Assembly: GCA_001773575.1 (NCBI GenBank) | Contig: MEXB01000008.1 | Coordinates: forward strand, 2,141-66,140 | Direction of reading: 5' to 3' | DNA: 64,000 nt | Origin: Candidatus Adlerbacteria bacterium RIFOXYC1_FULL_48_26 | GTDB taxonomy: Bacteria > Patescibacteriota > Minisyncoccia > Phycocordibacterales > SBAW01 | Part shown: piece after piece, positions 8,197-52,428 of the stretch | How the letters are laid out: every line of letters begins with the position of its first letter | How positions within the stretch are numbered: the stretch's first letter is position 1 | Notes under the pieces: model-generated | Databases searched by the model: none | What the model was told of the DNA's origin: nothing | Seen by the model: the letters and a program-made list of their open reading frames with translations, nothing else | Made by a program: the position numbers and the translations under genes

Positions 8197-10578
8197 TTAT
8201 TCCGTTTTTGCTTTAGCCCGGAATCCACGACGCTTCTTTTCTTCTTTGAGAATTTCCAGTGCTCGTTCAAAGGTAATGTCGTACGGACTTTCTTTTTTAA
8301 TCGAGCGGAAGTCAGCTTTCGGTTTAGTAAGGTGCGCAATGTATGGGCCGAAGCGGCCAGTATTCGCAACAATATCTATTCCAGTGTCAGGGTGTTGTCC
8401 GAGCAGGCGAGGAAGTGCCAAGTAATGAACAGCTTCTTCTACCGTAAGGGTTGCTGGATCTTTTTCTTTTGGAATTGAAGCGCGTTTTGGTTTTGCTTTT
8501 TTAGTCGAGCCTTTTCCTGTTGGCATTTCTCCCATCTGCACGTATGGACCGAAGCGGCCTGAAAGAATATAGATAGGCAGGCCAGTCTCTGGGTGCATAC
8601 CAATTGGTTTTGCTGGGTCGTTTGAAATGACCTCACCCAACTCTGTGCGTGCGCCCATACAGTCAGGGAAGCGCGAACAGCTCATAAACTTTCCTTGGCG
8701 GGAGAGTTTAAATACCATCGAAGAACTGCAGATAGGGCAGGTGAATTCTTCTGGAGCAGGGCCCAGGTCAGTAATCTTTCCAGCCTCTTTGTCTTTAATT
8801 TTTACTTCTTTAAGAAATGGCGTGTAGAAATCTTTAAGAGTTTTTACGTACTCGCGTTTACCTTGTGCGATATCGTCGAGCTCATCTTCCATCTCTGCAG
8901 TGAAGGTGTCGCTGATGTAGGTAGGGAAATTGTCTTCCAAAAACGTTGAGACAACATCGCCTGTGTCTGTTGGCGTAAGTGCGCGACCTTCTTTTGTTAC
9001 ATACCCGCGGACTTCAAGCGTTCGCATAATAGATGCGTATGTTGATGGGCGGCCGATACCACGTTTTTCAAGTTCTTTGATCAAACCTGCCTCGGTGTAG
9101 CGTTGAGGGGGAGTAGTCTGCTTCTCATCAGCGCGAACCTCTTTCACTTTGAGGGTCTCACCTTCTTTTACTTCGGGAAGTTCCACGTCTTCGCCGCGCG
9201 CTGCTGGGTCGGCGCGGAGCCACCCATCGAACATGACGCGTGAGCCATTGGCGACGAACAAAAAGGTCTGCGCAGAACCCTCTGCGTCGGTCTTCGGCTC
9301 CGCAGCCGGGTTCTGCTCCGACCCTCCAAACTTCAGTGCGTATGTTACAAAGTCTGACTGACCTTCAGTTTCCTGAACTTCGTCATCGCCCGTGTGCGAC
9401 TCTACGTGTGCTTTTTCGTACGCAACTATTGCAGTATCTGGTTTTGCAGTAATGCGAGTGCGTAGTATTTTTGCATCAGCCATTTGTGATGCGACTGTGC
9501 GTGCCCAGATAAGTTCATACAAACGCTTTTGTTCAGGAGTTGAGCCGAGCGATTCTTTTTCTACATGGGTAGGACGGACAGCTTCGTGTGCTTCCTGTGC
9601 GTTTTTAGATTTTGCAGTGAATACGTGCGGTACTGCATAGTCTGCTCCGTATTTCTTCTCGATCTGTTTAAGGATTGCTGCCTGTGCTGGCTTACCGAGG
9701 TTGGTCGAGTCTGTACGCATATAGGTAATATGGCCAGCTTCGTAGAGTTTCTGCGCAATACGCATAGTATTGGCAGGGGAGAAGCCAAGACGGGAGCTCG
9801 CCGCTTGTTGCAGAGTAGATGTTGTAAACGGTGCACGAGTTGAACGCTTTGCCTCAGTCTCTGTAACGCCTGCAACGGTAAGACCTTCTTTTGTGACAAG
9901 AGCAATAACCTTGTCGGCGTCTTCTTTGTCGCCAAGCTCGCGGTTTGCGGTAAGAGATAGTCCCTCTTTCTTTTTCGTGTCAGTGTCAGCGGAGACTACA
10001 TAGAACGTCTGAGGTATGAATTTTCTTATTTCGCGTTCGCGTTCCATCAGTATGCGGAGTGCGGGAGATTGCACACGGCCAGCTGAAAGGCCGTAACGGA
10101 CTTTTTTCCAAATAAGGCCGGAAAGATCGTAGCCTACGAGGCGGTCGAGTACGCGACGTGCTTCCTGTGCCTGGCGGAGGTTCTCATCTATAAGGCGTGG
10201 ATGTTCGAGCGCTTCCTGGATAGCCTCTTTGGTAATTTCATGGAACACAATACGCTCAGCTTTCTTAAGGCCCAGCTCTTCTTGTATGTGCCACGCAATA
10301 GCCTCTCCTTCACGGTCGGGGTCGGTTGCGAGAATCACCTCCTTAGCTTTTTTTGCGAGAGCCTTCAAGTCGCTGATAACTTCTTGTTTGCCCGGCACCA
10401 CTTCGTAGTGCGGAACGAAGCCCGCTTCAATATCAATAGCTTTCTTGTTGTTCTTGGGAAGGTCGCGTACGTGGCCGACAGATGCACGCACGACAAAGTC
10501 GCCAGCGGCATCTACCTCCTTTAAATACTTCTCAATCGTCTTTGCCTTTGCAGGGGACTCAACAATTACAAGCTTCAT
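8197..10578 (-). CDS. topA: DNA topoisomerase I
   Basis: MKLVIVESPAKAKTI Toprim start, GHVRDLP, and active-site Tyr region ITYMRTDS. One C4 zinc ribbon (CPICSSS...CSRFPDC). The ORF-track N-terminus is trimmed to the MKLVIV start. Confidence 0.9.
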   Translation of the reverse strand: MKLVIVESPAKAKTIEKYLKEVDAAGDFVVRASVGHVRDLPKNNKKAIDIEAGFVPHYEVVPGKQEVISDLKALAKKAKEVILATDPDREGEAIAWHIQEELGLKKAERIVFHEITKEAIQEALEHPRLIDENLRQAQEARRVLDRLVGYDLSGLIWKKVRYGLSAGRVQSPALRILMEREREIRKFIPQTFYVVSADTDTKKKEGLSLTANRELGDKEDADKVIALVTKEGLTVAGVTETEAKRSTRAPFTTSTLQQAASSRLGFSPANTMRIAQKLYEAGHITYMRTDSTNLGKPAQAAILKQIEKKYGADYAVPHVFTAKSKNAQEAHEAVRPTHVEKESLGSTPEQKRLYELIWARTVASQMADAKILRTRITAKPDTAIVAYEKAHVESHTGDDEVQETEGQSDFVTYALKFGGSEQNPAAEPKTDAEGSAQTFLFVANGSRVMFDGWLRADPAARGEDVELPEVKEGETLKVKEVRADEKQTTPPQRYTEAGLIKELEKRGIGRPSTYASIMRTLEVRGYVTKEGRALTPTDTGDVVSTFLEDNFPTYISDTFTAEMEDELDDIAQGKREYVKTLKDFYTPFLKEVKIKDKEAGKITDLGPAPEEFTCPICSSSMVFKLSRQGKFMSCSRFPDCMGARTELGEVISNDPAKPIGMHPETGLPIYILSGRFGPYVQMGEMPTGKGSTKKAKPKRASIPKEKDPATLTVEEAVHYLALPRLLGQHPDTGIDIVANTGRFGPYIAHLTKPKADFRSIKKESPYDITFERALEILKEEKKRRGFRAKAKTE

Positions 10579-10591
10579 GCAGTATCTTCTA

Positions 10592-11455
10592 TCATACACG
10601 TTCAATTTTTCCTAATCGTTCAATAATAAGTCCGCGAATTAATAGTGATGAAAGTGCGACATGTATATTGCGCGCAGACGTTCCAGATTTTTCTAAAATC
10701 TCATCATGGATTAGAGGTTCAGTAAGTATGCGAAGCACTGCCGTTTCTGCGTCCGTAAGGTCGGTGGGAATTGTTTGTTGTGTCGGTGTGTCATCGAGTT
10801 TGAATCCAAGTGCTCTCGCTACATCTGCGCTGTTTTGTACGAGCAGAGCGCCTTCGCGGATAAGACGGTTCACTCCAACTCCTGTGGGGCGTTCAAGTTC
10901 GTGCGGTACCGCAAGTACGTCGCTGTTGTATTCCAGTGCCATCTTTGCAGTGATAAGCGTCCCTGACCTCTCGCCGGCTTCTATAATAAGAGTTGCCTTA
11001 GACATTCCAGCCATCACACGGTTGCGTTCTGCAAAGGAGTGGAGCATAGCTTTAAACGGCGCCTCATTCTCACTAAGCAAACACCCTCCTTTTAAAAGAA
11101 TAGTACGAGCAAGAATTACGTTGTTGGCGGGGTAGATAGATGCTTCGTCGAGCGAAGAAGGAAGCACTGCAATGGTAGGAAGTCCGACATCAATAGCCGC
11201 TTTGTGTGCTTCGGTATCAATACCATGCGCGAGGCCTGAAACTATAGCGACAGGGTACTGTGCCAAGCCGGAGATAAGTTTGTGTGTAATTCTTCGTCCG
11301 TATGCAGTCGCGCTACGCGAACCAACGACGCACAGCAATATGCGTTCTTTGTCCGGCATCTCTCCTCTAATAAAGAGTCTCTCTGGCGCATCAGGTATTT
11401 CTCTAAGGGCCTCTGGAAAGGCCTCAAACGGAAGTTGTCCAATAGGGAAACGCAT
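10592..11455 (-). CDS. dprA: DNA-processing protein DprA (SMF family)
   Basis: Rossmann-like core VVGSRSATAYG..., GLAHGIDT, ..IIEAGERSGTLITA.. Lies immediately upstream of topA, the classic dprA-topA synteny. Confidence 0.85.
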   Translation of the reverse strand: MRFPIGQLPFEAFPEALREIPDAPERLFIRGEMPDKERILLCVVGSRSATAYGRRITHKLISGLAQYPVAIVSGLAHGIDTEAHKAAIDVGLPTIAVLPSSLDEASIYPANNVILARTILLKGGCLLSENEAPFKAMLHSFAERNRVMAGMSKATLIIEAGERSGTLITAKMALEYNSDVLAVPHELERPTGVGVNRLIREGALLVQNSADVARALGFKLDDTPTQQTIPTDLTDAETAVLRILTEPLIHDEILEKSGTSARNIHVALSSLLIRGLIIERLGKIERV

Positions 11456-11478
11456 TATAGTATTGTAGAGTCACCTTT

Positions 11479-12765
11479 ATGCTAGATATCGCTTTTATAC
11501 GGGAAAACCCAGATATTGTCCGTGCGGCAATCAAAAATAAAAACCGTGAAGGTATAGACCTGGACCGGATTTTAGTGCTTGCTGAAGAGCGCAAAAACAA
11601 CGCGAATGAAATTAGTGAAATCAACCGCCAGCGAAACGTAGCGCAAGAAGCTCGTGATGGTGAAGCAGGAAAGCGCTTAAAAGAAGAACTCAAGGCTGTT
11701 GAAGAGAAACATCAGGCGACAGAAAAAGAGCTTGTCTCTCTTTTAATAAAGATTCCAAATATTCCATCTGCCGATACTCCTATCGGTCCTGATGAATCTG
11801 GCAACGTGGTAATTCGCCAATGGGGAGAAAAACCACAGTTTCCATTTGCCCCCAAAGCTCATTGGGATTTGGGAAAAAATTTAGGAATAATTGATGGTGA
11901 AAAGGCTGCAGAAGTAAGCGGCGCTCGCTTCGTGTATTTGAAGGGCGATATGGCGTTGCTTGAAATGGCATTGATGCGTTTTGGCTTCGATACTCTTATT
12001 TCAGAAGAAACATTGAAGAAAATTATCGACGGCGCAGGACTCACAGTAAGCAGTAAACCTTTTACTCCCGTTATTCCACCGATCCTTATGCGTTCTCAGG
12101 TGATGAACCGTATGGCGCGCCTAGACCCTATAGACGAACGTTACTATTTTGAAAAAGACGACATGGTGTTTGTCGGAAGTGCAGAGCACACACTCGGACC
12201 ATTGCACATGGATGAAATTCTAAAAGAAGAAGATCTTCCTCTTCGCTATGCAGCCATGACTCCTGCATTCCGCCGTGAAGCAGGTGCGGCAGGGAAGGAT
12301 ACACGTGGCATCTTGCGTTTGCACCAGTTCGATAAGCTTGAAATGGAAACATTCTCTAAACCTGAAGATGGTTTGGCAGAACAAAACCTTATGGTCGCAA
12401 TCCAGGAATACCTCTTGCAACAGCTCAAGCTTCCATACCAAGTTGTTTCAATCTGCACAGGAGACATGGGCTTCCCAGACCAGCGACAGATCGACATCGA
12501 AACGTGGATGCCTGGCCAGGATGCCTATCGCGAAACAAATACATCAGACTATATTGGTGGCTTCCAAGCACGTCGCCTTAACTCGCGCGTACGCCGCACC
12601 GACGGAACGCTTGAACCAGTGCACATGAACGACGCAACGGCATTTTCACAGCGTCCGCTCGCAGCTATTCTTGAAAACAATCAACACGAAGACGGTACTA
12701 TCACTATCCCTGAAGTCCTTCGTCCATACATGGGTGGTCGCGAAAAAATCGAAGCAAAGAAATAG
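11479..12765 (+). CDS. serS: Serine--tRNA ligase
   Basis: N-terminal coiled-coil arm. Class II motifs (FRRE.. motif 2, GDMGF.., C-terminal DGTITIPEVLRPYMGG). Confidence 0.9.
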   Translation: MLDIAFIRENPDIVRAAIKNKNREGIDLDRILVLAEERKNNANEISEINRQRNVAQEARDGEAGKRLKEELKAVEEKHQATEKELVSLLIKIPNIPSADTPIGPDESGNVVIRQWGEKPQFPFAPKAHWDLGKNLGIIDGEKAAEVSGARFVYLKGDMALLEMALMRFGFDTLISEETLKKIIDGAGLTVSSKPFTPVIPPILMRSQVMNRMARLDPIDERYYFEKDDMVFVGSAEHTLGPLHMDEILKEEDLPLRYAAMTPAFRREAGAAGKDTRGILRLHQFDKLEMETFSKPEDGLAEQNLMVAIQEYLLQQLKLPYQVVSICTGDMGFPDQRQIDIETWMPGQDAYRETNTSDYIGGFQARRLNSRVRRTDGTLEPVHMNDATAFSQRPLAAILENNQHEDGTITIPEVLRPYMGGREKIEAKK

Positions 12766-30259: not shown

Positions 30260-31708
30260 ATGAAGTTCACAAAAGCGTTTACGCTCGCTCTATTCGTTTT
30301 CTTGTGTGTTCCAGGCCTTGCTTCTGCGCGCACGCTCATTGTTGGTACATCAGGAGATGATGTTACAAACCTTCAGAACGTTCTTATTTCACAAAAATAC
30401 CTCGCTGAAGGAAACAACATAGGATATTTTGGTCCTGCGACACTAGCTGCAGTCAAAAAATTTCAATGCGAGAAAAAAATCGTATGCTCAGGTTCTAGCT
30501 ACGGAGTTGCCGGCCCTCAGACACAAGCCGCCCTCCGCATTCAAAATATAGATACTCCAATTGCTTCGCCACCTAACACCAAGCCGTTGGAATTTGGCGG
30601 ATGGATGCCGTACTGGAGTGAAGACAAAAGCGTTGCTGATGTAACTCCGCACCTCGACCAACTGACAGTAGTTAACCCTTTCACCTACACGATGAAGTCC
30701 GACGGCACCGTTAACGATGCTGCTGGTATGGACAAAGAGCCATGGACTTCGTTTATGGCGGCAGCAAAAGCAAAAGGTGTGCGCGTTATCCCAACAATTA
30801 TGTGGGGTGATGGCGATACCCAACATGCCATTTTGAGCGATGCAAAAAAACGCGTAGCGCTTGAAGATGAAATAGCCAAGTTGGTTAAAGACAATGGGTT
30901 TGATGGAATTGACATCGACTTTGAAGCGCGAAAAGCAGAAACACGAGAATATTTTTCAACCTTTTTGAAAGGACTCTACCAGCGCATGGGAAACAAATGG
31001 GTGTACTGTTCCATCGAGACACGCATGACGCTCGACCATCGCTACGGCATAGGTGTGAAGCCTCCTCCAGAATCGACCGAATATGCTAACGACTTTGTCG
31101 CTATAAACAAATACTGTGACCGCGTTCAAATTATGGCCTACGACCAAGGTTCCATTGACGCGATTTTGAACACGTCACGAGCTCAGCCGTATGTGCCACT
31201 GGCCGACCCGTCGTGGGTGGAAAATGTTGTTACCTTGGCGGCACAAACTATCGATAGAAAGAAAATTATTATCGGCGTGCCAACCTATGGTTATGAATAT
31301 AAGGTTACGTCGTCCGGTTCTGGGTATCAATACAAACTCCAGTGGGCGTTCAACCGAAACTATGCAACACAACTCGCATCGCTTCTTGGTATAACGCCGT
31401 CTCGAAATAGTGCTAACGAGTTGTCGTTTATATACAAATCGACCGCTCAGACTCAAGCACTCTCAGACCAGGCTAGTGTTCCAGGTACTGTTGCTGCAAG
31501 TGGTAACACAGTGCTACCTCCGACCGATGTATACACACAGTTAGCTCTCGCAACGTCAATTCAACCGCCGTTCAACATCGTATGGTGGAGCGACGCTCAA
31601 GCTATTGCCGACAAAGTTGCACTCGCAAAGAAACTTGGCGTCCGCGGCATCGCAGTATTCAAACTGGATGGGTCCGAAGATCCAAACATCTGGAACGTGC
31701 TGAAGTAA
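30260..31708 (+). CDS. Secreted glycoside-hydrolase family 18 (chitinase-like) protein with N-terminal peptidoglycan-binding (PG_binding_1) domain
   Basis: Signal peptide. PG-binding repeat (GDDVTNLQNVL....GYFGPATLAAVKKFQ). GH18 catalytic motif FDGIDIDFE. Confidence 0.7.
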   Translation: MKFTKAFTLALFVFLCVPGLASARTLIVGTSGDDVTNLQNVLISQKYLAEGNNIGYFGPATLAAVKKFQCEKKIVCSGSSYGVAGPQTQAALRIQNIDTPIASPPNTKPLEFGGWMPYWSEDKSVADVTPHLDQLTVVNPFTYTMKSDGTVNDAAGMDKEPWTSFMAAAKAKGVRVIPTIMWGDGDTQHAILSDAKKRVALEDEIAKLVKDNGFDGIDIDFEARKAETREYFSTFLKGLYQRMGNKWVYCSIETRMTLDHRYGIGVKPPPESTEYANDFVAINKYCDRVQIMAYDQGSIDAILNTSRAQPYVPLADPSWVENVVTLAAQTIDRKKIIIGVPTYGYEYKVTSSGSGYQYKLQWAFNRNYATQLASLLGITPSRNSANELSFIYKSTAQTQALSDQASVPGTVAASGNTVLPPTDVYTQLALATSIQPPFNIVWWSDAQAIADKVALAKKLGVRGIAVFKLDGSEDPNIWNVLK

Positions 31709-31713
31709 TTGTT

Positions 31714-31761
31714 GGGGTCAGACCCCGCAATAACCTAAAATCCGTGTCCTAATATTTTAGG
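31714..31761 (+). repeat. REP-like element copy R1: GGGGTCAGACCCC + 7 nt + cctaaaat..attttagg hairpin module
   Basis: Perfect 13-nt palindrome plus an 8-bp inverted repeat, read directly. Shares the consensus with the copies at 32417, 33002 and 52321. Confidence 0.6.
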
Positions 31762-31816
31762 AAAAATTTGCAGTCTCTTGAACGATCTCATATGTGGTGA
31801 GTGCCATACTTCCTAA

Positions 31817-32410
31817 ATGGCACGAATGCATCGCATCGATCTCGGAGGATATATCTATCACGTAATTAACCGAGCAAACGCTCGGATACGTATATTTCAT
31901 AACGATTCGGATTACAAAGAATTCGAATATCTACTTACAGAAATTAAAGAAACGTATAACGTACGTATTCTTGCGTATGCATTGATGCCAAATCACTGGC
32001 ATCTTTTACTGTATCCACGGAATGATGGCGATATGTCTAAAGCTCTTCATTGGTTAACTACGTCTCATGCGCGTCGGCATCATATTAAAAACAAAACAAT
32101 TGGAAACGGCCATCTTTACCAAGGACGTTACAAGTCGTTCATTATCAAGGGAGACAAGCATCTTTTAACAGTGCTCAAATATATCGAGAGAAATCCAGCA
32201 CGAGCAAGATTGTGTAATGTTGCAGAGGCGTGGCGATGGGGAAGCGCGTTTAGAAGGGTGTGTGGAACAACTGCAGAGCAGCAGTTGCTTGCAGGATTGC
32301 CCCTTGATCTACCGAAAAATTACCTTGAATGGATTAATACCCCCGAACCTTCCGAAGAATTGAAAGCCATTCGTCATTCTGTAAATATGGGCGTACCATA
32401 TGGTGGGTGA
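31817..32410 (+). CDS. REP-associated tyrosine transposase (RAYT; IS200/IS605-like Y1 HUH transposase)
   Basis: HUH motif in PNHWHLLL, catalytic Tyr region GHLYQGRYKS, N-terminal YHVINR. 197 aa, which fits Y1 transposases. Confidence 0.75.
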   Translation: MARMHRIDLGGYIYHVINRANARIRIFHNDSDYKEFEYLLTEIKETYNVRILAYALMPNHWHLLLYPRNDGDMSKALHWLTTSHARRHHIKNKTIGNGHLYQGRYKSFIIKGDKHLLTVLKYIERNPARARLCNVAEAWRWGSAFRRVCGTTAEQQLLAGLPLDLPKNYLEWINTPEPSEELKAIRHSVNMGVPYGG

Positions 32411-32416
32411 GTTTCT

Positions 32417-32464
32417 GGTAAAATACTAGAACACAGTTTATTTGTTTTTATGGGGTCTGACCCC
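32417..32464 (-). repeat. REP-like element copy R2 (inverted orientation relative to R1/R3/R4)
   Basis: The reverse complement reads GGGGTCAGACCCC-ataaaaa-caaataaaCTGTGTTCtagtATTTTAcc. It shares ggaattGGGGTCAG and CTGTGTTC-agt-TTTTAC with R3. Confidence 0.55.
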
Positions 32465-32514
32465 AATTCCCCCGGCTGTTCAGAGTGTAATATCTGCCTT
32501 TACTAAGAAATAGG

Positions 32515-32988
32515 TTGTATATGAAAAATAGATTTTATTTTGATCGTTCTCTCACAAATGGAGCTATTATAATTTTAGCCATTGCTTTTACTGCAATGGC
32601 GGGACTCTCTCTTCTTGGAGGTTTTTCAGAACGACCATTCGTGTTTCTGGGAGTTGTTTATTCTATTCTCATTCTCATTTGGTTTGGATTTGCTTACGGG
32701 ATATATATAAATATTGAAGGAAACAGTCTTCAGGTCACACGTTTTTTTATAAAATGCAAGAAAGTTGATTTAGCGAAAGCAATTTCAATACAGCAAAAGC
32801 CAAAATTCGGAGGTTTAATTTATGAAGTCTCCCTGCAATTCCAAGACAATAATGGAAAAATTGATAGTACTGGTCTAATAAACAAACCCGCTCTAAAAGT
32901 AGAGGAATACGAACGACTCGTTAAACTTGTCATTGAAATAAATAAAGATGTAAGTATTGATCCTGATTTACTTAAGAAAGTTTTTTAA
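32515..32988 (+). CDS. Hypothetical membrane protein, possibly YdbS-like bacterial PH-domain (bPH_2) protein; markedly AT-rich
   Basis: Two N-terminal TM helices followed by a beta-rich ~90-aa domain. Lies between inverted REP copies R2 and R3. Confidence 0.35.
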   Translation: MYMKNRFYFDRSLTNGAIIILAIAFTAMAGLSLLGGFSERPFVFLGVVYSILILIWFGFAYGIYINIEGNSLQVTRFFIKCKKVDLAKAISIQQKPKFGGLIYEVSLQFQDNNGKIDSTGLINKPALKVEEYERLVKLVIEINKDVSIDPDLLKKVF

Positions 32989-33001
32989 TAGAATTGGAAT
33001 T

Positions 33002-33049
33002 GGGGTCAGGCACCTCAATACTCTAAAATCTGTGTTCGAGTTTTTACAG
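33002..33049 (+). repeat. REP-like element copy R3 (degenerate palindrome GGGGTCAGGCACC)
   Basis: The second module is conserved (tctaaaatCTGTGTTCgagtTTTTACag). Confidence 0.5.
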
Positions 33050-33068
33050 CACTGTATAATAACCTCAT

Positions 33069-34745
33069 ATGTCCCTCGGCAGTGACCTGCGGAAGCTTGT
33101 GCGTGGAGAAGTTGAAGACTCAAGCGAGGTGCTTGAGCGCTATTCACGCGACGCCAGCCTTTTTTATGTAAAACCGGGTGCGGTGTTTAAAGCAAAAGAC
33201 GCAACAGATCTTGGTATTGCCGTGCGCTATGCGGTGCATCAGAAAGAAATAAGCCCTGACAGCAGGGTTTCTATTACTGCACGCTCTGCCGGTACTGACA
33301 TGTCCGGTGGGCCGCTCAATACATCCATTATCGTGGATATGATGGCGCACTTTGATAAGTTGATTGAGCTTAGTGAATCACCAGACGGCGGATATGCAGT
33401 GGTTGAGCCGGGGATGTACTTCCGCGACTTCGATAAAGAAACTCAAAAGAAAAATCTAGAGCTTCCAAGCTATACAGCCTCACGGCAGATCAACACTGTG
33501 GGCGGTATGGTTGCCAACAACTCAGGCGGAGAGAAGAACCTTAAGTACGGCAAAACCGCACGCTATGTTGAGGAGCTTGATGTGGTGCTTGCCGATGGAC
33601 AGACGCACACACTTAAAAACCTTGAAGGCGATTCATTAAAGCTCAAGCTGCGCGAAGCGGGGCTTGAAGGAGATATATATCGCGGTGTTGCACGAATACT
33701 GTTGTCCCATAAAGATGTTATAGAGAAACATAAACCCACTGTAGAGAAGAATTCTTCAGGATACGCGCTATGGGATATAGGGGATGGTGTTAATTCGCTT
33801 AATCTCGCTCGGCTTATGGTTGGTTCACAGGGCACGCTTGGCATTGTGACAAAAATTAAATTCAAGCTTGTGCGGCCTAAACCATATGCCGCCATGACGG
33901 TCGCATTTCTAGACTCACTTTCAGAGCTTGGAAAGATCGTACCGGAGGTGCTTGAGAAAAAGCCGGACAGCTTTGAGTCTTACGACGACAATACATTTAA
34001 ACTTGCAGTTAAATACTTCCCAGAATTTGCGACGCAGATGAAGGCGGGGATTATTTCGCTTGGTATTTCTTTTTTGCCTGAGCTCTGGATGCTTATAACA
34101 GGCGGTGTTCCAAAGTTGGTACTTATGATTGAGTTCCATGCGGATACTCAAGAAGAGGCACTCAAGAAAGCAGAAGAGCTGGGAGAAGAAATCAAAAAGA
34201 ATAACCCTAAGGTAGGTACTCGTGTGGCTAAAGATGAGAAAGCTGCCCGAAAGTATTGGACTATCCGCCGAGAGAGTTTTAACCTGCTACGCCAGAAAGT
34301 GCGAGGGAAAAGAACCGCGCCTTTTATTGATGACTTTGTTGTGCCACCAAGTACATTGCCTGAATTTTTACCTAAGCTTGAAGCGATTCTAAAACCATAC
34401 GAAAAGAACATGATGTACACGGTTGCGGGCCACGTAGGTGACGGCAATTTCCATATCATTCCATTGGTTGACCCAACGCGTACTGAAACCGCACGCATCA
34501 TTGATGAGCTCTCACACAAAGTGTATGACCTGGTGCTGGAGTATAAGGGCTCTATAAGCGGGGAACACAACGATGGCTTTATCCGTACCCCATACGTCAA
34601 AAAGATGTTCGGTACAGACATGTACGCACTCTTCCTAGAAGTGAAGAAAATCTTCGACCCGCACAACATATTTAACCCAGGTAAAAAGGTAGGCTCTACC
34701 TTCAGCGATGCGCTCTCACACTTAGACCTTCCAAAAGGTAAGTAA
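33069..34745 (+). CDS. FAD-linked oxidase (PCMH-type FAD-binding domain; GlcD / D-lactate dehydrogenase-like)
   Basis: FAD-binding segment ITARSAGTDMSGGP, ..NTVGGMVANNSGG.., C-terminal GGSISGEHNDG. Confidence 0.75.
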   Translation: MSLGSDLRKLVRGEVEDSSEVLERYSRDASLFYVKPGAVFKAKDATDLGIAVRYAVHQKEISPDSRVSITARSAGTDMSGGPLNTSIIVDMMAHFDKLIELSESPDGGYAVVEPGMYFRDFDKETQKKNLELPSYTASRQINTVGGMVANNSGGEKNLKYGKTARYVEELDVVLADGQTHTLKNLEGDSLKLKLREAGLEGDIYRGVARILLSHKDVIEKHKPTVEKNSSGYALWDIGDGVNSLNLARLMVGSQGTLGIVTKIKFKLVRPKPYAAMTVAFLDSLSELGKIVPEVLEKKPDSFESYDDNTFKLAVKYFPEFATQMKAGIISLGISFLPELWMLITGGVPKLVLMIEFHADTQEEALKKAEELGEEIKKNNPKVGTRVAKDEKAARKYWTIRRESFNLLRQKVRGKRTAPFIDDFVVPPSTLPEFLPKLEAILKPYEKNMMYTVAGHVGDGNFHIIPLVDPTRTETARIIDELSHKVYDLVLEYKGSISGEHNDGFIRTPYVKKMFGTDMYALFLEVKKIFDPHNIFNPGKKVGSTFSDALSHLDLPKGK

Positions 34746-52290: not shown

Positions 52291-52320
52291 CACCAGTTCA
52301 ATACTCCTATGACCAGAATC

Positions 52321-52369
52321 GGGGTCAGACCCCACAAAATCCTAAATAATGTTTTGTAATTCAGTTTGG
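52321..52369 (+). repeat. REP-like element copy R4 (GGGGTCAGACCCC-acaaaat-cctaaataatgttttgtaattcagtttgg)
   Basis: Perfect 13-nt palindrome identical to R1/R2. The second module is degenerate. Confidence 0.55.
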
Positions 52370-52428
52370 ATTTATCTAAAACAAAAAGAAAAGAGCCGCT
52401 TGTGGGCGGCTCTTGGAGAGAGGGTCTT

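Follow-up and report, generated by a model that had tools for sequence, protein, structure and literature searches.

RAYT-like genes, i.e. genes resembling those of the REP-associated tyrosine transposases (REP, repetitive extragenic palindrome), that are flanked by terminal inverted repeats (TIRs) rather than by REPs with a GTAG tetranucleotide have been named TIRYT or TIRtron (Di Nocera, De Gregorio and Rocco 2013, BMC Genomics 14:522, PMC3733652). In some to most TIRtrons, not in all, the motif GGGGWSAS is found at an about constant distance from the gene (PMC3733652). Twenty of the 26 TIRYTs of Di Nocera were assigned to subclass 2.1 of the TnpA_Y1 transposases (Quentin 2018, PMC6006769), the second-largest RAYT-like subclass, in which no REP-like structure was found and which was equated with group 1 of Bertels (PMC6006769). 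Characteristic of subclass 2.1 are the motifs NHVH or NH[YF]H, W[EQ] or FQ, YIELNP or Y[IV]HLNP and an SS tail motif, a median length of 238 aa and a distal helix-turn-helix (HTH)-like domain with similarity to Bac_DnaA_C, HTH_23 and HTH_28 (PMC6006769). Groups 1 and 6 comprise the RAYTs that most resemble insertion sequences (ISs), and group 1 has about 12 copies of the flanking 16-mer per replicon (Bertels 2017, PMC5581495). The canonical REPtrons belong to subclasses 2.2, 2.4, 2.5, 2.7 and 2.8, corresponding to Bertels groups 2 and 3, and are marked by a GT[AG]G foot; here the flanking 16-mers reach 57–140 copies per replicon and REPs usually number more than 100 per genome. The locus described below lies in a stretch of 64,000 nucleotides (the window) on contig MEXB01000008.1 of Candidatus Adlerbacteria bacterium RIFOXYC1_FULL_48_26, a member of the candidate phyla radiation (CPR). 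It is probably an element of the TIRtron type, consisting of a gene for a RAYT-like Y1/HUH transposase which is bounded by TIRs of about 55 bp.

The transposase gene (31817–32410, plus strand) codes for a protein of 197 aa, whose identity was established by Pfam, NCBIfam, profile alignment and a structure model. Residues 12–126 match the Pfam family Y1_Tnp (PF01797) with an E-value of 1.8e-19 and 70.4 bits against a cutoff of 23. The NCBIfam models REP_Tyr_transpos (NF047646; 63.3 bits, cutoff 80) and transpos_IS200 (22.6 bits, cutoff 55) both stay under their cutoffs. An earlier annotation of the region (the original prediction) had placed a Y1/HUH transposase here, which is confirmed by the Y1_Tnp match and by the HUH motif NHWH with H60-W61-H62 (codons at 31994–32002). 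Its assumption of a RAYT profile held at the level of Y1_Tnp and failed at that of REP_Tyr_transpos. Across an alignment of 34 homologs with 62–72% identity to the window protein, residues H60, W61, H62, Y101-Q102, Y105 and Y122-x-E-R-N-P are invariant or nearly so, and within the latter segment Y122, N126 and the motif YIERNP as such show no exchange. YIERNP represents the Y---NP signature and not the Y---Q of IS200. In a profile search of the PDB, KYIERNP lies opposite the segment DYIYINP of the Escherichia coli transposase TnpA_REP (4er8), and Y122 is also aligned with the KYIE segment of ISDra2 TnpA. The first tyrosine of DYIYINP is the one which we take to be the catalytic residue of TnpA_REP. 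On account of this alignment and of the Y---NP motif typical of the RAYT/TnpA_REP class 2, as opposed to the Y---Q of IS200 (Quentin 2018, PMC6006769), Y122 (32180–32182) is predicted to be the nucleophile. The segment LYQGRYK, formerly regarded as the tyrosine region, turned out to be another conserved RAYT motif, with IWQPRFWEH as its counterpart in E. coli TnpA_REP.

The AlphaFold model of the protein reached a mean predicted local distance difference test (pLDDT) score of 88.8. Its top match in the PDB, found with Foldseek, is 4er8_A (E-value 9e-9, 182 aligned columns, target-normalised template modelling (TM) score 0.73), at a sequence identity of 17%, and the top 30 matches are all TnpA_REP, ISDra2, IS608 or IS200 transposases. 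Since the match to 4er8 spans 182 columns, whereas the transposases of IS200, IS608 and ISDra2 cover just the core of about 120 residues, the 197-aa protein is, as modelled, of the RAYT type as opposed to an IS200 TnpA. The tail (residues 143–191) folds into four short helices in the model. By its motifs NHWH, YQ, YIERNP and WRWGSA (WSS in some homologs) the protein appears close to TnpA_Y1 subclass 2.1, i.e. Bertels group 1, as a near and not an exact match.

Flanking the gene are two inverted copies of a bipartite repeat. The left inverted repeat R1 (left end, LE; 31709–31766, plus strand) consists of a hairpin (31708–31731) around the exact 13-mer GGGGTCAGACCCC (31714–31726), the stem of which reaches 10 pairs, followed by a spacer and the box TGTCCTAAT (31745–31753). 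The right inverted repeat R2 (right end, RE; 32412–32469, minus strand) has its hairpin core at 32452–32464, and its inner box abuts the stop codon of the transposase gene. Together they form an inverted pair whose arms of 55 nt are 76% complementary and enclose 645 nt; both contain the exact GGGGTCAGACCCC. A solo repeat in LE orientation, R3 (32997–33046, plus strand), displays the degenerate core GGGGTCAGGCACC (33002–33014) within a stem at 32999–33019 and shares 66% identity with R1 over 58 nt. The inverted arrangement of R1 and R2 and the presence of R3 agree with the original prediction; the perfect 13-nt palindrome that it assigned to all three is present in R1 and R2 and absent from R3. 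A fourth copy had been overlooked: R4 (52316–52373, plus strand; core GGGGTCAGACCCC at 52321–52333) is situated between genes, downstream of a tRNA and 19 kb away, and is the sole copy in the window outside a block of 1.34 kb that comprises R1–R3.

Pairwise identity among the four copies ranges from 59 to 72%. Common to all of them are GGGGTCAG, a short A-rich spacer and the box CTAAAAT-CYGTGTYC-TAGTATTTT. The 13-mer occurs at three sites in the window, where 0.03 are expected by chance, and the relaxed core GGGGTCAGNCNCC at four sites (seven strand matches against 0.48 expected); a profile built from R1–R4 found no fifth copy in the window. An Rfam scan of the whole window returned four tRNAs only, none of them at the repeats, and a literature search for the 13-mer itself found no relevant report. 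The inner module had been described as a second hairpin in every copy. It folds better than shuffled sequences in R1 only (8-bp stem, z = −2.8), whereas R2, R3 and R4 behave like shuffles. As a conserved structure the second hairpin was accordingly rejected: what is conserved is a sequence, and the module is a promoter-like box. Twenty nt downstream of R4 there is a GC-rich inverted repeat, AAGAGCCGCTTGTGGGCGGCTCTT (52393–52417), with the region of the tRNA and of open reading frame (ORF) 109 on one side and, on the other, an ORF on the minus strand whose product bears a lipoprotein-like signal (...LLSAC). This inverted repeat probably represents an intrinsic terminator without relation to the repeat family.

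The same layout is found throughout a larger family. An identical RAYT protein is encoded on 20 contigs of the window species, from the Rifle aquifer and other groundwater metagenomes, always in identical context and with one RAYT locus per genome. A word-based protein search yielded 1,712 homologs, of which few are named, as Kaiserbacteria, Zambryskibacteria or merely ‘bacterium’. From 569 relatives confirmed in a metagenome scan, 80 orthologous loci with 47–66% protein identity were kept; the layout counts refer to these 80 and the window (81 loci), and L-numbers denote contigs or loci of the scans. The hairpin motif is located upstream in plus orientation in 73 of the 81 loci and downstream in minus orientation in 70. 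Two clusters, at 33 nt and at 46–49 nt, are seen in the distance that separates its first G from the ATG, and the downstream distances cluster as well. Exact GGGGWSAS is present in 94 of 142 ortholog-flanking hairpins, and the motif varies with lineage (GGGGTCAG in 64, GGGGACAG in 30, GGTGTCAG in 21, GGGGATAA in 10, besides rarer forms). The halves of the hairpin change in concert. Stem pair 8–22, just outside the core, co-varies (UA 70, AU 22, GC 5, CG 2), as does the third core pair 11–19 (GC 32, UA 22, the remainder being a conserved G·A mismatch). Paired cells amount to 68.9%, compared with 63.8 ± 0.8% in shuffles, none of 500 of which was as high, and the covariation score is 0.183 against 0.125; both pairing and covariation lie above every slid register.

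At the right end, hairpin and gene can be interlocked. In 31 of 78 orthologs, e.g. L048 and L058, the RAYT ORF ends at the TGA of the right hairpin loop (...PKNGG*); since the ORF runs into the hairpin, the latter encodes the last residues and the stop codon. Many orthologs also have a TGnTAnnnT box facing inward at this end. The 3′ end of the window gene, ATATGGTGGGTGA (32398–32410), resembles the ortholog right-end hairpin AATGGTGGCTGACCCC. Possibly an older right end has decayed here, immediately interior to R2, but the idea carries little weight, the sequence being already constrained by the codons of the conserved PYG motif. Outside the CPR, the Acidimicrobiia metagenome-assembled genome (MAG) L151 encodes a homolog with 31% identity which carries NHVH, YVELNP and WSS, shares the C-terminal motif IRNSVNTG with the window protein and adjoins GGGGTCAGACCCC; these features in combination tie the CPR clade to the typical family.

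The junction was compared with that of related genomes. In three genomes whose glycoside hydrolase family 18 (GH18) homologs are 93, 78 and 73% identical to that of the window, the flavin adenine dinucleotide (FAD)-oxidase gene starts 19–21 nt after the GH18 stop codon. In blastn the homology of these relatives to the window stops at 31708–31714 and resumes at 33045–33053. The window junctions read ...CTGAAGTAA | TTGTTGGGGTCAG ... GAGTTTTTA | CAGCACTGTATAATAACCTCAT ATG and the empty junction of the closest relative ...CTGAAATAA | CGGTTGTATAATAAGGTCAT ATG, and the TGTATAAT box of the downstream gene is preserved. As the homology breaks at both edges of the block, the sequence comparison identifies the 1,338 bp from 31709 to 33046 (R1-RAYT-R2-ORF157-R3; GC content 38.3% against 47.5% for the window) as an insertion between the GH18 and FAD-oxidase genes. 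A further sign of mobility is seen in L025, where two 100%-identical 776-bp units of hairpin, RAYT and hairpin (9054–9829 and 10840–11615) are separated by about 1 kb; the left end of this unit lies 6 nt before GGGG, and the left junction of the window 5 nt. Three more contigs contain two diverged or partial copies each. The absence of the block from three relatives together with the identical L025 copies makes the element look IS-like and recently mobile. A conserved gene context, considered as a sign of vertical residence, was rejected, as gene order near the orthologs is not conserved; neither TypA nor GH18 nor the FAD oxidase adjoins the RAYT in any of the 80 orthologous loci. Two small ORFs and a solo hairpin array in plus orientation are found between the L025 copies, the second of which has one extra 15-nt stutter unit in its right flank.

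Between R2 and R3 lies ORF157 (32515–32988, plus strand), with its start codon, an ATG, called at 32521 and a product of 155 aa. A small membrane protein with two N-terminal membrane helices is predicted; it is without family assignment and is called in all contigs of the window species. A word-based homolog search returned the identical protein only, and relatives were detected only through tblastn of the RAYT loci. Full-length homologs adjoin RAYT units in L019 (435–902) and L086 (3615–4079), with 36% and 26% identity in blastp, so that ORF157 is a probable passenger gene. L019 and L086 have a further adjacent ORF in common (43% identity over 61 aa), which may form a passenger cassette with ORF157. 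In L073 (11201–11660) a toxin-antitoxin-like pair of ORFs (72 and 85 aa), read from the sequences and without profile match, stands between the right-end hairpins of the RAYT and a further hairpin set, and looks like cargo or an integration hot spot.

Under one alternative, which we consider doubtful although it fits several observations, the mobile unit would at this site extend over all 1,338 bp, R1 and R3 included, with R2 as an internal copy and the passenger carried along; its directly oriented end hairpins, the left one near the 5′ and the right one near the 3′ terminus of one strand, would give a geometry like that of IS200/IS605. R1 and R3 share their orientation; the left edge of the insertion is found 5 nt 5′ of the R1 hairpin core and the right edge 32 nt 3′ of that of R3. 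Moreover, the order LE(+), RAYT, RE(−), one or more small genes and again a (+) hairpin was met again in L025, L058 and L073, with L047 and L084 as apparent further cases, and the neighbourhood of ORF157 homologs and RAYT units in L019 and L086 points in the same direction. However, the only demonstrable duplicate, that of L025, ends at the inverted right hairpin and not at a (+) hairpin; the passenger genes of most loci are not related among themselves; and two successive insertions would give an identical picture. What moved here could be either the R1-R2 unit of 767 bp plus a separate event involving ORF157 and R3, or one R1-to-R3 element.

A classical REPtron, in which a resident, domesticated RAYT has seeded its flanking REPs as a population of REPs or REPINs, is unlikely. 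In its favour are the RAYT-type protein with its Y---NP motif, the fold closest to TnpA_REP and the inverted flanking repeats; R3 and R4 lie away from the gene, and a single locus per genome is seen on the 20 contigs of the window species. However, the GT[AG]G foot is absent before R1–R4, where the feet read TTGTT, GAATT, GAATT and GAATC, and precedes only 6 of the 142 family hairpins; the GTAG-like guide tetranucleotide envisaged in the original prediction is thus missing from every hairpin of the window. Four copies in 64 kb, to which the profile search added none, are few. Around the orthologs, in about 0.3 Mb, a copy at a distance of more than 250 nt from any RAYT is likewise rare; where the context reached 6 kb or more (32 cases), most of the extra copies are found within 1–2 kb of a RAYT or mark a second one. 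The REP_Tyr_transpos score under its cutoff, the absence of the block from close relatives and the duplication of an ortholog unit as a whole also speak against this reading. A REP-seeding REPtron is therefore not supported: without a GT[AG]G foot and with R4 as the sole outside copy in 64 kb, with GGGGWSAS common to most TIRYT/TIRtron flanks across phyla, and with a block insertion that behaves like an IS, the dispersal of a distinctive REP family within the genome, as originally proposed, is not borne out. ‘REPtron-like’ remains apt as a description of the architecture, a RAYT-type enzyme between inverted repeat copies.

Upstream of the gene, a probable promoter was recognised by comparison. 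An extended −10-like box, TGCCATACT (31802–31810, plus strand), is located 15 nt upstream of the ATG and deviates from TGnTAnnnT by one mismatch. Between hairpin and gene, TGnTAnnnT is found in 50 of 77 orthologs, in 41 of those exactly at −15, compared with 2 of 80 in a control inside genes. A generic sigma-70 and terminator scan of 31600–33200 reported nothing at R1–R3 or TGCCATACT, and its sites were no commoner than in shuffles; the argument thus rests on the comparative TGnTAnnnT signal. The window carries both TGCCATACT and the R1 box TGTCCTAAT, which accounts for the distance of R1 from the ATG, about 56 nt more than the family mode. Since the −15 spacing leaves 6 nt between hexamer and ATG, the sequence implies a leaderless or near-leaderless transcript. 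If the RAYT bound the left hairpin, which lies 10–25 nt upstream of the −10 box, repression of the gene could follow, albeit this is speculative.

A further alternative is that the repeats serve primarily in gene expression, as promoter or operator in front of the gene and as RNA stem-loop or terminator behind it, and that they are conserved together with the gene and are not transposition substrates. The fixed distance of the left hairpin from the −10 box, the position of this box at −15 and the use of the right-loop TGA as stop codon in 31 of 78 orthologs are what such signals would show, and some GGGGTCTGACCCC copies in other phyla, among the matches listed, are followed by T-runs in the manner of intrinsic terminators. 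Nevertheless, we regard an exclusively regulatory role as even less probable than a REPtron. An element of about 50 nt is inverted at both ends, the solo copies R3 and R4 lie apart from any RAYT, and the repeat forms the exact edge of both the duplicated L025 unit and the window insertion. No T-run follows the hairpins of the window. Moreover, regulatory and substrate roles can coexist. Chance similarity or a purely local duplication without functional tie to the ORF can be dismissed: three of the four copies do lie within 1.3 kb, but the 13-mer is expected only 0.03 times, and a confinement of the repeat to this locus, which the original prediction named as telling against itself, does not hold, given the copy 19 kb off and the same layout in about 70 independent orthologous loci.

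In the preferred TIRtron reading, the outer part of the repeat would form an imperfect hairpin with GGGGWSAS (here GGGGTCAG) in its 5′ arm and loop, and the inner part a TG-n-TAnnnT box which at the left end would double as the promoter of a leaderless transcript. R1-RAYT-R2 would have arrived within the low-GC insertion of 1.34 kb that carries ORF157 and the solo end R3, and R4 would represent a further solo end of the element. By analogy with IS200/IS605 TnpA and E. coli TnpA_REP, a TnpA-type dimer might bind the hairpins when extruded on single-stranded DNA, with His60 and His62 holding the metal, while Tyr122 would cleave the strand, form a 5′-phosphotyrosine intermediate and rejoin it. 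Because the ends are inverted, the same loop sequence, CAG, would be offered on one strand at the left end and on the other at the right end, in the manner of REPtrons. In this manner the whole unit, and occasionally a single end, may have moved at low frequency, and binding of the left hairpin beside the promoter box could in addition autoregulate the gene.

Several points weigh against this reading or limit it. The assignment to subclass 2.1 depends on motifs, which are deviating (NHWH instead of NH[VYF]H, YIERNP instead of YIELNP). The protein, at 197 aa, is shorter than the subclass median of 238 aa, and no HTH-like domain was detected in it, as Y1_Tnp is the sole Pfam family at E ≤ 0.1. 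The right boundary of the insertion is the inner side of R3 and not R2, and thus the unit that moved here is not simply R1-RAYT-R2. Covariation of the palindrome is compatible with recognition of a single-stranded hairpin and equally with a dimer that binds duplex DNA. The site of cleavage, the strand specificity and binding itself are proposed by analogy. Finally, the count of repeat copies refers to the 64-kb window.

A peculiarity of the family are arrays outside the hairpins. At 50 of 128 hairpins the 5′ arm together with GGGG(WSAS) is repeated on the outer side in truncated copies, direct and in tandem; 82 extra copies lie outside as against 2 inside. The copies have a common start boundary and end anywhere from GGG to the last base of GGGGWSAS, almost never past it. 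An example is GATAATTGGGGTCAG|ATAATTGGGGTCAG|ATAATTGGGGTCAGTCCCCATTA in L015, and arrays were also seen in the flanks of L019, L025, L038, L046, L053, L065, L068 and L078. In the window, R3 constitutes a minimal array, GAATTG|GAATTGGGGTCAGG (32994–33010), the repeat being preceded by the duplicated arm GAATTG|GAATTG. A published mechanism explaining such arrays was not found in the literature searched. The abrupt end of the copies could reflect a nick placed in the loop after GGGGWSAS, or else an arrest of the polymerase at the hairpin apex with subsequent template switching. IS608 TnpA and E. coli TnpA_REP cut outside the hairpin. A loop nick would differ from these and resemble the rolling-circle Rep proteins. 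Only tentatively, and at rather long odds, we suggest that this Y1 family nicks in the loop directly 3′ of GGGGWSAS, that the arrays are footprints of repeated abortive strand transfer or re-priming, and that the family is an active low-copy, CPR-wide lineage which ferries passengers. If so, a lineage widespread among CPR bacteria and equipped with a leaderless promoter of its own would bring passengers such as the ORF157 family and toxin-antitoxin pairs into the tight intergenic spacers of streamlined genomes.

The hairpin core is also encountered outside the RAYT loci. A scan of the contig collection with GGGGTCAGACCCCNNAANA gave at least 120 matches, mostly in other phyla; the source genome is not among the matches listed. 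Among these matches, GGGGTCAGACCCC in other phyla occurs as inverted doublets with palindromic spacers of 10–50 nt which resemble REPINs or miniature inverted-repeat transposable elements (MITEs). Such doublets were seen in Lachnospiraceae and other Bacillota MAGs (L107, L130, L143, L158, L176, L203, L209–L211, L217), in the viral contigs L091 and L096 and in the Alphaproteobacteria L142, L148, L153 and L154. There are several copies per genome, and those followed by T-runs could act as terminators. In the Patescibacteria MAG L114 (5554–5842), three direct copies of about 45 nt with GGGGTCAGACCCC are spaced by 129 and 141 nt. A different hairpin family, AAGAATAAGGTGTCAGGTACCATTAAAT, is present in 3–4 tandem copies in L019 (2803–2910), 1 kb from the first RAYT unit, where different TIRtron lineages seem to cluster.

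The locus was compared with known systems. With the TnpA proteins of IS608 and ISDra2 of the IS200/IS605 family it shares the fold and, by prediction, the chemistry of the catalytic core, subterminal hairpins predicted to be recognised on single-stranded DNA, mobility of the whole element and the lack of obvious target-site duplications at the junctions. In contrast to the window element, IS200/IS605 transposases have Y---Q and about 130–150 aa without C-terminal tail, their end hairpins lie on the same strand, many of the elements carry tnpB, and they usually exist in multiple near-identical copies, whereas the RAYT forms one locus in the window species. The REPtron of E. coli TnpA_REP (RayT/YafM) has reportedly been described by Nunvar in 2010 and by Ton-Hoang and Messing in 2012. 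E. coli TnpA_REP provides the closest solved structure and resembles the window protein in HUH motif, Y---NP, inverted hairpin repeats and a single gene copy per genome. However, the E. coli REPs possess a GTAG guide, number hundreds and are organised in bacterial interspersed mosaic elements (BIMEs), and the E. coli gene is resident and vertically inherited, while the window shows no GTAG, four copies in 64 kb and an insertion polymorphism. The REPIN-RAYT system of Pseudomonas (Bertels and Rainey 2011) is similar in that its RAYT is present once and is flanked by repeats to which copies dispersed in the genome are related, and the inverted GGGGTCAGACCCC doublets of other phyla are reminiscent of it. 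It differs in that the window lacks doublets, has a far lower copy number and gives no sign of long-term vertical co-inheritance.

The TIRtrons were catalogued in 2013 and 2018, in the only two papers of the literature searched to mention TIRYTs; tests of their mechanism were not found there, nor was any report linking a RAYT or TnpA_REP to CPR bacteria. Besides the differences in HUH motif, length and HTH-like domain, the locus is set apart from them by its CPR host, and the co-varying hairpin with GGGGWSAS in 5′ arm and loop, the leaderless-type box and the arrays were not found in the TIRtron papers. The locus and its about 80 orthologs offer a comparative picture of co-varying hairpin, termini, empty sites, identical duplicate and built-in promoter, which makes the question of binding and cleavage directly testable. 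They also illustrate how, in the streamlined genome of a CPR bacterium, an element that looks recently mobile has entered a 20-nt intergenic spacer and left the downstream promoter intact. For annotation it follows that labels such as ‘REP-associated’ or ‘IS200-like transposase’ on such CPR genes are not to be taken as a sign of a REP population. In other respects the likeness to TIRtrons is close, and both features by which they are defined are present: a RAYT-like Y1/HUH gene between TIRs and not GTAG REPs; GGGGWSAS at a roughly constant distance from the gene, sometimes overlapping its 5′ or 3′ end; a YIE-NP-like Y motif and a W-x-W-(S/G)-S/A tail motif; and small to moderate TIR families with solo, dimeric or clustered copies, IS-like duplicates and a patchy distribution. 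In conclusion, the locus is probably a CPR member of the TIRtron kind already described.

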